Part shown: one piece after another, positions 4,967-5,038 of the stretch
Position numbering within the stretch: the first letter of the stretch is position 1
How the letters are laid out: each line of letters starts with the position of its first letter
From: a virus
Lineage: Duplodnaviria > Heunggongvirae > Uroviricota > Caudoviricetes
Strand: one strand, 5' to 3'
DNA: 5,809 nt
IMG/VR virus record: IMGVR_UViG_2531839233_000007
Notes under the pieces: model-generated
What the model saw: only the letters and a program-made list of their open reading frames with translations
What the model was told of the DNA's origin: nothing
Database searches by the model: none
Made by a program: the position numbers and the translations under genes

Positions 4967-5038
4967 TGAACTTTGAGTACATGCTATAACAGAACTGACA
5001 GTACATTCAAGAGCGAATATCATTGAACTTATGGTTCA
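4967..5038. promoter_or_regulatory. immunity operator/promoter region: three TGWAC-N5-GTWCA sites with overlapping divergent promoters
   Basis: Sites 4967..4981 TGAACTTTGAGTACA, 4991..5005 AGAACTGACAGTACA, 5024..5038 TGAACTTATGGTTCA. Candidate repressor promoter: -35 CTGACA 4995..5000, 17-bp spacer, -10 TATCAT 5018..5023. Candidate cro-like promoter on the minus strand: -35 TTGAAT (complement of 5005..5010), -10 TATAGC (complement of 4983..4988). Confidence 0.55.

Follow-up and report, generated by a model that had tools for sequence, protein, structure and literature searches.

A probable right operator of the HK022/933W type, with a repressor transcript predicted to be leaderless, in a Rac-like prophage of Escherichia coli

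The viral record IMGVR_UViG_2531839233_000007 (Caudoviricetes), a stretch of 5,809 nucleotides (nt) hereafter called the window, carries two divergent genes, one for a 139-amino-acid (aa) repressor (5031-5450, + strand) and one for an 84-aa Cro-like protein (4697-4951, - strand). We consider it likely that the region between them is the right operator (OR) of a lambdoid immunity switch of the HK022/933W type in a Rac-like Escherichia coli prophage, and that the repressor promoter (PRM) starts at the repressor AUG or 1 nt before it. This reading is drawn from sequence comparison, and it combines the number and placement of three palindromic sites, the kinship of the two proteins to those of HK022 and 933W, and the conservation of a -10 hexamer at a fixed distance from the start codon across several bacterial orders.

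The cro-like ATG at 4951 (- strand) and the repressor ATG at 5031 enclose a gap of 79 bp (4952-5030). An earlier examination of the letters alone (the sequence-only reading) had described this gap as holding three 15-bp sites of one motif, TGWAC-N5-GTWCA, the third of them overlapping the repressor ATG. Recomputing the coordinates bore out the gap, the sites and the overlap, while the claim of a single shared motif stood for the first and third sites, which are exact matches, and had to be loosened for the second, which carries one mismatch. Specifically, the OR1-like operator TGAACTTTGAGTACA (4967-4981) adjoins cro, overlaps the predicted start of the divergent promoter (PR), takes the same position as oR1 of HK022 and is conserved in the 23 loci that could be aligned without gaps. 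The OR2-like operator AGAACTGACAGTACA (4991-5005) has A for T at its first base and lies within the PR spacer, and its own spacer holds the PRM -35 hexamer; its first base is not T in 19 of the 23 aligned loci, in which the OR2 spacer, TGAnA, is more conserved than that of OR1. The OR3-like operator TGAACTTATGGTTCA (5024-5038) is identical to oR3 of HK022, and its dyad centre falls on A5031, the first base of the repressor ATG, where PRM is also predicted to start. The three centres, 4974, 4998 and 5031, therefore lie at -57, -33 and 0 relative to the ATG, with spacings of 24 and 33 bp.

The motif is rare enough for these sites to stand out. At up to one mismatch the window contains five matches against 0.52 expected, a number reached in 0 of 200 shuffles; at up to two mismatches it contains 13 against 6.9 expected, and the signal is largely lost in the background. 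In a close variant with 83% gene identity, the operators differ at 0 of 45 positions while the remainder of the gap differs at 9 of 42 (Fisher p = 0.0009); nor do the PRM hexamers differ. That the palindromes are chance matches, or relics without a regulatory role, is hardly credible in view of these counts, of the substitution-free operators in the diverged variant, of positions and spacing that are identical in 28 loci of several orders, and of the near identity of the element to isolated phages described below.

The operator interpretation finds its main support in homology to two experimentally studied switches. The HK022 immunity region is said to have been described by Oberto et al. in 1989 and by Carlson and Little in 1993. 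In the HK022 record (X16093), potential 15-bp repressor sites are annotated at 3057-3071, 3033-3047 and 3000-3014 (centres 3064, 3040 and 3007), the last centred on the cI ATG, together with the pR hexamers and two oL sites that lie 24 bp apart around the pL -35. HK022 has, like the window, a 79-bp cro-cI gap and site spacings of 24 and 33 bp. In the orientation of the window, the HK022 OR reads TGAACTTATGGTTCA - tattatgacg - GAACTGATAGTACA - gtcaatacctaatatagt - TGAACTTATGGTTCA, and its oR2 shows the same non-consensus first base, with the spacer TGATA where the window has TGACA. In 933W (AF125520), the site centres at 845, 869 and 901 correspond to -56, -32 and 0, so that the geometry is the same and the third site is again centred on the ATG; the record also marks a putative pM, with 7 nt between the end of its -10 and the cI ATG, as in the window. 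The operator half-sites of 933W differ in part (CGTAC), as does the recognition helix of its repressor (SSKGVSKW versus TPKAVSKW in the window). Occupancy of OR3 by the 933W repressor has been reported to repress PRM (PMC5977221, PMC4848623), and the 933W PRM start is displayed in one figure of the second paper (Figure 6b of PMC4848623). What defines this type of OR, namely three dyad sites (T/C)G(A/T)AC-N5-GT(A/T)C(A/G) with centres 24 and 32-33 bp apart, the third on the start codon, a homologous repressor DNA-binding domain and a homologous Cro, is found in its entirety in the window.

The two proteins match those of the same phages. In a tblastn search of a phage collection, the first 77 residues of the repressor matched HK022 CI (58% identity), HK75 CI and 933W CI (51%) over about 73 aa, and in the protein database its N-terminal 75-100 residues are 62-72% identical to repressors of 235-240 aa that carry an S24 peptidase domain (PF00717). 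Conservation begins at M1, and the recognition-helix residues K42 and K46, whose role in 933W has been described (PMC3317979), are invariant. The 84-aa Cro-like protein is 62% identical to HK022 Cro (E = 1e-34). From the homology of both proteins to ones with published binding data, such as the 933W repressor (PMC3317979), we infer that repressor and Cro bind the three sites.

The remainder of the repressor is of another kind. Residues ~88-137 align with the C-terminal domain of the Qin prophage protein DicA at 32% identity over 50 aa (E = 3e-8), and the whole repressor is 28% identical to DicA over 112 aa. The match to the NCBIfam DicA subfamily NF007257 spans profile positions 20-132 of 135 and scores 56.4 bits against a cut-off of 101, which points to a DicA-like architecture and not to a DicA orthologue. 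Pfam assigns only helix-turn-helix families to the protein (HTH_3), with no S24 peptidase, and no G-x-S-M motif occurs in its 139 aa. On these matches, the repressor is a domain chimera in which residues 1 to ~80 are of HK022 type and a DicA-like domain forms the C-terminus. With this tail in place of an S24 peptidase, it should not be cleaved in the SOS response, nor should it respond to RecA as the CI proteins of HK022 and 933W do. The same short form of the repressor is found in Salmonella relatives. Both reference phages differ from the window in this respect: HK022 CI has 235 aa with an S24 self-cleaving domain, and 933W likewise has an S24-cleavable repressor. They also differ in what accompanies cro, since HK022 has cII, put sites and an OFR site after cro, and 933W has cII, whereas the window has ydaT overlapping the end of cro.

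We next consider the promoters. On the + strand of the gap, the promoter scan returned a single match, CTGACA-17-TATCAT, which agrees with the consensus at 10 of 12 positions, and a separate hexamer scan ranked this same pair best on either strand. This PRM-like promoter (4995-5023, + strand) combines a -35 hexamer at 4995-5000, a 17-nt spacer and a -10 hexamer at 5018-5023, and its predicted start is 5031 or 5030, the former having the Y-1/R+1 context tA. The scans thus agree with the sequence-only reading, which had named TATCAT, ending 7 nt before the ATG, as the best -10 for the repressor. Its observation that the gene lacks a Shine-Dalgarno sequence holds as well, since GGAG, GAGG, AGGA, AAGG and GGTG are all absent from -20 to -3. 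No in-frame ATG, GTG or TTG occurs between the upstream stop codon at 4974-4976 and 5031. The leaderless mRNA proposed from these features is further supported by the retention, in Enterobacterales, Vibrionales, Pseudomonas and Salinicola, of a -10 hexamer 7 nt ahead of the ATG, by a variant layout in the Pasteurellaceae, and by the precedents of PaaR2 and RacR, and we judge that the repressor mRNA very probably starts at the AUG.

Those precedents come from sister switches of prophages. The cI message transcribed from lambda PRM is the classic leaderless repressor mRNA. For paaR2 of CP-933P, leaderless expression was established by 5' RACE, N-terminal sequencing and mass spectrometry (PMC8630535). 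In the Rac prophage of K-12, the strongest racR promoter, PracR3, yields a transcript found to be leaderless by primer extension, and two leadered promoters exist besides it (PMC9638921). Given lambda cI, PaaR2 and RacR, a leaderless maintenance transcript is what would be expected for such a gene. A literature search combining HK022 with leaderless returned nothing relevant. An observation on K-12 Qin concerns dicA itself: upstream of the dicA ATG (L041, 1400-1437) there is no Shine-Dalgarno-like sequence (...gatttagcattagctaactATG) and TAGCAT ends 9 nt before it, so that the dicA leader may be very short or absent.

The comparative set places the window among relatives. Scanning a single genome for each species yielded 35 loci with genes for repressor relatives, to which HK022, HK75, 933W and two loci fetched by protein identity were added; the set used comprises 37 loci including the window, and as these are phylogenetically non-independent, several being near-identical, the counts below overstate the number of independent observations. 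The OR3 centre falls on the A of the ATG in 28 of the 37 loci, HK022, HK75 and 933W among them, and these 28 come from Escherichia/Shigella, Salmonella, Kluyvera, Klebsiella, Enterobacter, Brenneria, Pantoea, Providencia, Vibrio, Photobacterium, Pseudomonas, Salinicola and one metagenome-assembled genome. Within this group, 24 of 28 loci have TAnnnT at -13 to -8, and, with a shift of 1 nt allowed, 27 of 28 have the critical A2 and T6; CTGAnA stands at -36 to -31, inside the OR2 spacer, in most of them. The ungapped alignment of 23 loci gives the consensus TGAACTTTnAGTACA-TATTATGnCn-GAACTGATAGTACA-nTCAAnnnnnnn-TATnAT-TGAACnnATGGTTCA, in which the 7 nt between the PR -35 and the PRM -10 vary freely, and no Shine-Dalgarno motif was found in the typical loci.

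The eight Pasteurellaceae loci (Haemophilus, Volucribacter and Gallibacterium) provide a natural contrast. All three sites are present there at unchanged spacing and TATAAT before site 3 is retained in seven of the eight, while the ATG lies 19-24 nt downstream of the site 3 centre, behind AAGG(T)G or AAGGA in all eight. Promoter position is therefore tied to OR3 and not to the gene, and the gene appears to begin either at the predicted +1 without a Shine-Dalgarno sequence or later with one. The same loci bear on a different proposal for the third site, that it acts mainly as RNA, as a UGAAC-UUAUG-GUUCA hairpin that presents the AUG in its loop and tunes the translation of long transcripts. The AUG does fall exactly within the 5-nt spacer, and the palindrome would be transcribed in full in leadered transcripts only. 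Yet the Pasteurellaceae keep the site at the same distance from the -10 with the AUG no longer inside it, which argues for a function at the DNA level; additionally, OR3 occupancy represses PRM in 933W, and a 5-bp stem is weak. We therefore regard a main role as RNA as very improbable.

The overlap leaves its mark on the protein. Of the 28 overlapping loci, 27 have an N-terminus that reads MV[HQ], as encoded by the operator half-site ATGGTWCA; the eight non-overlapping loci all lack it and begin with MIT, MNE or MIS. Several side observations on the relatives also concern the start codon. In many of them the -10 hexamer is TATGAT and holds an in-frame ATG 12 nt upstream of the true start (L004, L005, L008-L011, L018 and L026, ~2989-3001), and gene callers extend repressor open reading frames into the operators, the extension reading E-L-x-V-H, which is translated operator (proteins P0001, P0015, P0021, P0025 and P0029); these N-terminal extensions are probably annotation errors. 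Two atypical relatives, L014 (Enterobacterales bacterium CwR94) and L015 (Pantoea sp. 1.19), have a divergent gene product of 145-147 aa unrelated to Cro, an altered site pattern (without a site on the ATG in L015) and AGGA upstream of the ATG.

On the opposite strand, the PR-like promoter (4981-5010, - strand) for cro, ydaT and the replication genes has a predicted -35 TTGAAT (5010-5005) and a start at ~4974-4976, inside OR1. Its -10 may be TGtTATAGC (4991-4983, 16-nt spacer, extended -10) or TAGCAT (4986-4981, 18-nt spacer); both options match at 8 of 12 positions, below the threshold of the promoter tool. The equivalent places in relatives hold CATAAT and TTGAC, and the pR hexamers of HK022 are annotated there.

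Taken together, we propose the following arrangement. The 139-aa repressor would bind the three dyad sites, as would, by analogy with HK022, the 84-aa Cro, and these sites would control two interdigitated divergent promoters, PR driving cro, ydaT and the replication genes and PRM driving the repressor gene. With its -35 in the OR2 spacer, its -10 abutting OR3 and its start at the OR3 centre, PRM would produce a leaderless maintenance transcript. Because the PR -35 lies between the -35 and the -10 of PRM, mutual exclusion of the two polymerases is to be expected. With OR1 and OR2 spaced by 24 bp, as they are in lambda, repressor at these two sites would shut PR, whereas repressor at OR3 would sit on the PRM start and limit its own synthesis, the role reported for OR3 of 933W. 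A pair of left operator (OL) sites about 500 bp away would control a PL-like promoter and may loop to OR.

Several points weigh against this arrangement, in addition to the relatedness of the loci compared. All promoter assignments are consensus matches joined to conservation, and with 7 nt between the -10 and the A, a start at T5030, leaving a 1-nt leader, is equally compatible. In lambda, ~82 bp separate the starts of PR and PRM, and OR2, with its centre at -42, is placed so that contact with sigma can bring about activation. In the window, by contrast, the two starts would be only ~55 bp from each other and the promoters interdigitate, with the centre of OR2 at -33, on the -35 hexamer, and that of OR3 on +1. 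Since OR2 covers the PRM -35, lambda-style activation from OR2 cannot apply; occupancy of OR2 should instead hinder PRM, and the activity of PRM with OR1 and OR2 filled is left unexplained. The non-consensus first base may keep OR2 weak, and relief from competition by PR may amount to an effective activation of PRM. The + strand of the gap also has a weak candidate promoter with an extended TG, ATGTGA-15-TATAAC, at 4964-4990. Finally, a perfect YdaT operator TTGATTTTCATGAATCAA (4690-4707) spans the cro stop codon and the ydaT start; it is the only zero-mismatch match to TTGATT-N6-AATCAA in the window and implies a second repressor transcript with a long leader, in line with the additional upstream promoters of racR.

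The same motif at the same position in CP-933P is the YdaT operator OM, which controls PRE933P of the repressor operon (PMC9986795). By analogy, 4690-4707 is likely to be the control site of a PRE-like promoter reading toward the repressor gene, and a YdaT-dependent, long establishment transcript through OR into that gene is likely. One could go further and suppose that the repressor is made mainly from leadered transcripts, be it from a YdaT-activated PRE-like promoter near 4690-4707 that runs antisense through cro or from minor promoters in the gap such as ATGTGA-15-TATAAC, so that TATCAT is only operator flank and translation begins at an internal AUG without a Shine-Dalgarno sequence. The perfect YdaT operator with its CP-933P equivalent, and racR, for which two of three mapped promoters are leadered (PMC9638921), speak in favour. 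We nevertheless consider this unlikely. The A2 and T6 of the -10, which are non-coding and lie outside the 15-bp site, are conserved across several bacterial orders at a fixed 7 nt from the ATG, the -35-like CTGAnA is conserved too, the Pasteurellaceae relatives have a Shine-Dalgarno sequence where the ATG sits elsewhere, and the leaderless promoter is the main maintenance promoter for both PaaR2 and RacR. Both routes probably coexist, as PRE and PRM do in lambda: the long establishment transcript, which would also lack a Shine-Dalgarno sequence before the AUG, is more a complement of the leaderless PRM transcript than its rival.

The left-hand counterpart of this OR lies beyond the repressor gene and is likewise of HK022 type. 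Two of the five motif matches at up to one mismatch, neither of them listed with this finding in the sequence-only reading, form the OL-like pair, 24 bp apart: the OL2-like operator TGTACTTAAAGTACT (5527-5541), which aligns to oL of HK022 and HK75, and the OL1-like operator TGAACACAAAGTACA (5551-5565), which lies between the hexamers of a PL-like promoter, TTTACA-17-CATTAT (5541-5569, + strand). The promoter scan found this promoter in the arrangement annotated for pL of HK022, and the OL/PL unit aligns as a whole to oL2, oL1 and pL of HK022 and HK75. No third OL site was found at up to one mismatch. HK022 CI has been described to loop OL to OR (PMC8053113). We also looked for an HK022 put site after PL and rejected it: HK022 and HK75 cease to be similar immediately past the PL -10, which leaves no putL, and the leader of ~165 nt folds no better than shuffles (z = -1.4).

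Other features of this flank were noted. A hairpin at 5454-5491 (+ strand), 4 nt after the repressor stop codon, has a predicted energy of -19.4 kcal/mol (z = -4.2); no T-run follows it directly, and the terminator scan found no terminator after the repressor gene, so the hairpin may be a weak terminator or a stabiliser of the 3' end. After the PL-like promoter comes a G+C-rich 5' untranslated stretch of ~165 nt (5575-5737). As far as position 5620 it is conserved in ~2400 E. coli records, K-12 being one of them, and several phages have similar sequence that runs to 5809. At E <= 1, the sole Rfam match within 4200-5809 was a tmRNA fragment attributable to chance. In a Salmonella enterica relative (L043), a HigB-toxin gene and a helix-turn-helix gene (3553-4220) separate the OL pair (4313-4351) from the short repressor gene, at the position held by paaA2-parE2 in CP-933P and by rexAB in lambda.

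With regard to the element as a whole, the isolated phages vB_EcoS-666R9, -673R7 and -613R10 share 99.9% identity with the window, and phage Tritos shares 94.5%. The stretch 4900-5620 is present at a coverage of at least 80% in 1047 of 5426 complete E. coli genomes (~19%), O157:H7 among them. On the - strand, the cro-like gene, which has a GAGGG Shine-Dalgarno sequence at 4960-4956, is followed by ydaT (4278-4700, - strand), which overlaps the end of cro, and beyond ydaT by O-like and DnaC-like replication genes. The ydaT product matches Pfam YdaT_toxin PF06254 (E = 6e-11) and PDB 8BT1 (E = 1.7e-6), as well as PDB 3C4R, and YdaT is a functional equivalent of CII. On this gene order and these matches, what the window carries is the immunity region of a Rac-like lambdoid prophage of E. 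coli. An 11-nt inverted repeat, TTTCTGCCAAT / ATCGGCAGAAA, 91% complementary with 12 nt between its arms, was also seen at 4737-4770 in the 3' part of the cro-like gene, where the Cro of the window exceeds HK022 Cro in length.

Comparison with further switches shows which parts are shared. The PaaR2-YdaS-YdaT region of CP-933P has, like the window, a short, peptidase-free repressor, a divergent Cro analogue with YdaT after it (PMC8630535, PMC9986795), TTGATT-N6-AATCAA at the end of the cro-like gene and OL-like sites beyond the repressor operon. Its operators differ, being 18-bp repeats (consensus GTTTAGTAA) in four inverted repeats; its YdaS is unrelated to the HK022-type Cro of the window, and its YdaT is distantly similar (E ~1e-6). 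PaaR2, which forms octamers, was compared through its published description and was not among the PDB sequence matches. The RacR-YdaS system of K-12 Rac has the Rac-type prophage backbone of the window, while RacR and its approximately nine binding sites are unrelated to the window motif (PMC9638921). DicA of Qin (135 aa versus 139 aa) has the same architecture, a helix-turn-helix followed by a short helical C-terminal domain, with operators and a DNA-binding domain that differ from those of the window. Lambda, lastly, shares three operators between divergent cI and cro, OR1 and OR2 at 24 bp from each other, and autorepression through OR3.

By these comparisons, the finding is a rediscovery, in another phage, of the HK022/933W-type OR, a design that the sequence-only reading had not named; it is correct but ordinary, and the understanding of phage switches is unchanged by it. 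The architecture was already known from the annotation of HK022 in 1989 and of 933W in 1999, and lambda, CP-933P and Rac each have a repressor message demonstrated to be leaderless. Modestly new are the assignment of this element to the HK022 family, the fact that operator centre, predicted +1 and AUG coincide family-wide, and the Pasteurellaceae variant led by a Shine-Dalgarno sequence, together with the one unusual feature of the switch, a DicA-like C-terminal domain that replaces the self-cleaving peptidase.

The analysis settles the annotation of the window, with the repressor start at the ATG at 5031 and OR and OL of HK022 type, and it explains a recurrent error by which repressor open reading frames are extended upstream into their operators. 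It also offers a natural comparison, in which one operator/promoter cassette is used with the AUG at the predicted +1 in enteric bacteria, vibrios and pseudomonads and with the AUG ~20 nt downstream, behind a Shine-Dalgarno sequence, in the Pasteurellaceae. In the overlapping form, an operator half-site dictates the first three residues of the very protein predicted to bind it. Because the repressor has a DNA-binding domain of HK022/933W type, because the window operators conform to nG(A/T)AC(T/C), the half-site that the 933W repressor prefers, and because the stretch is so widespread in E. coli genomes, there is a small chance that the 139-aa repressor cross-regulates operators of HK022 type and of the Stx-phage 933W type, and is regulated in turn. 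If so, carriage of this element would confer an SOS-insensitive partial immunity to HK022-type and 933W-type phages, or would alter the induction of Stx prophages.

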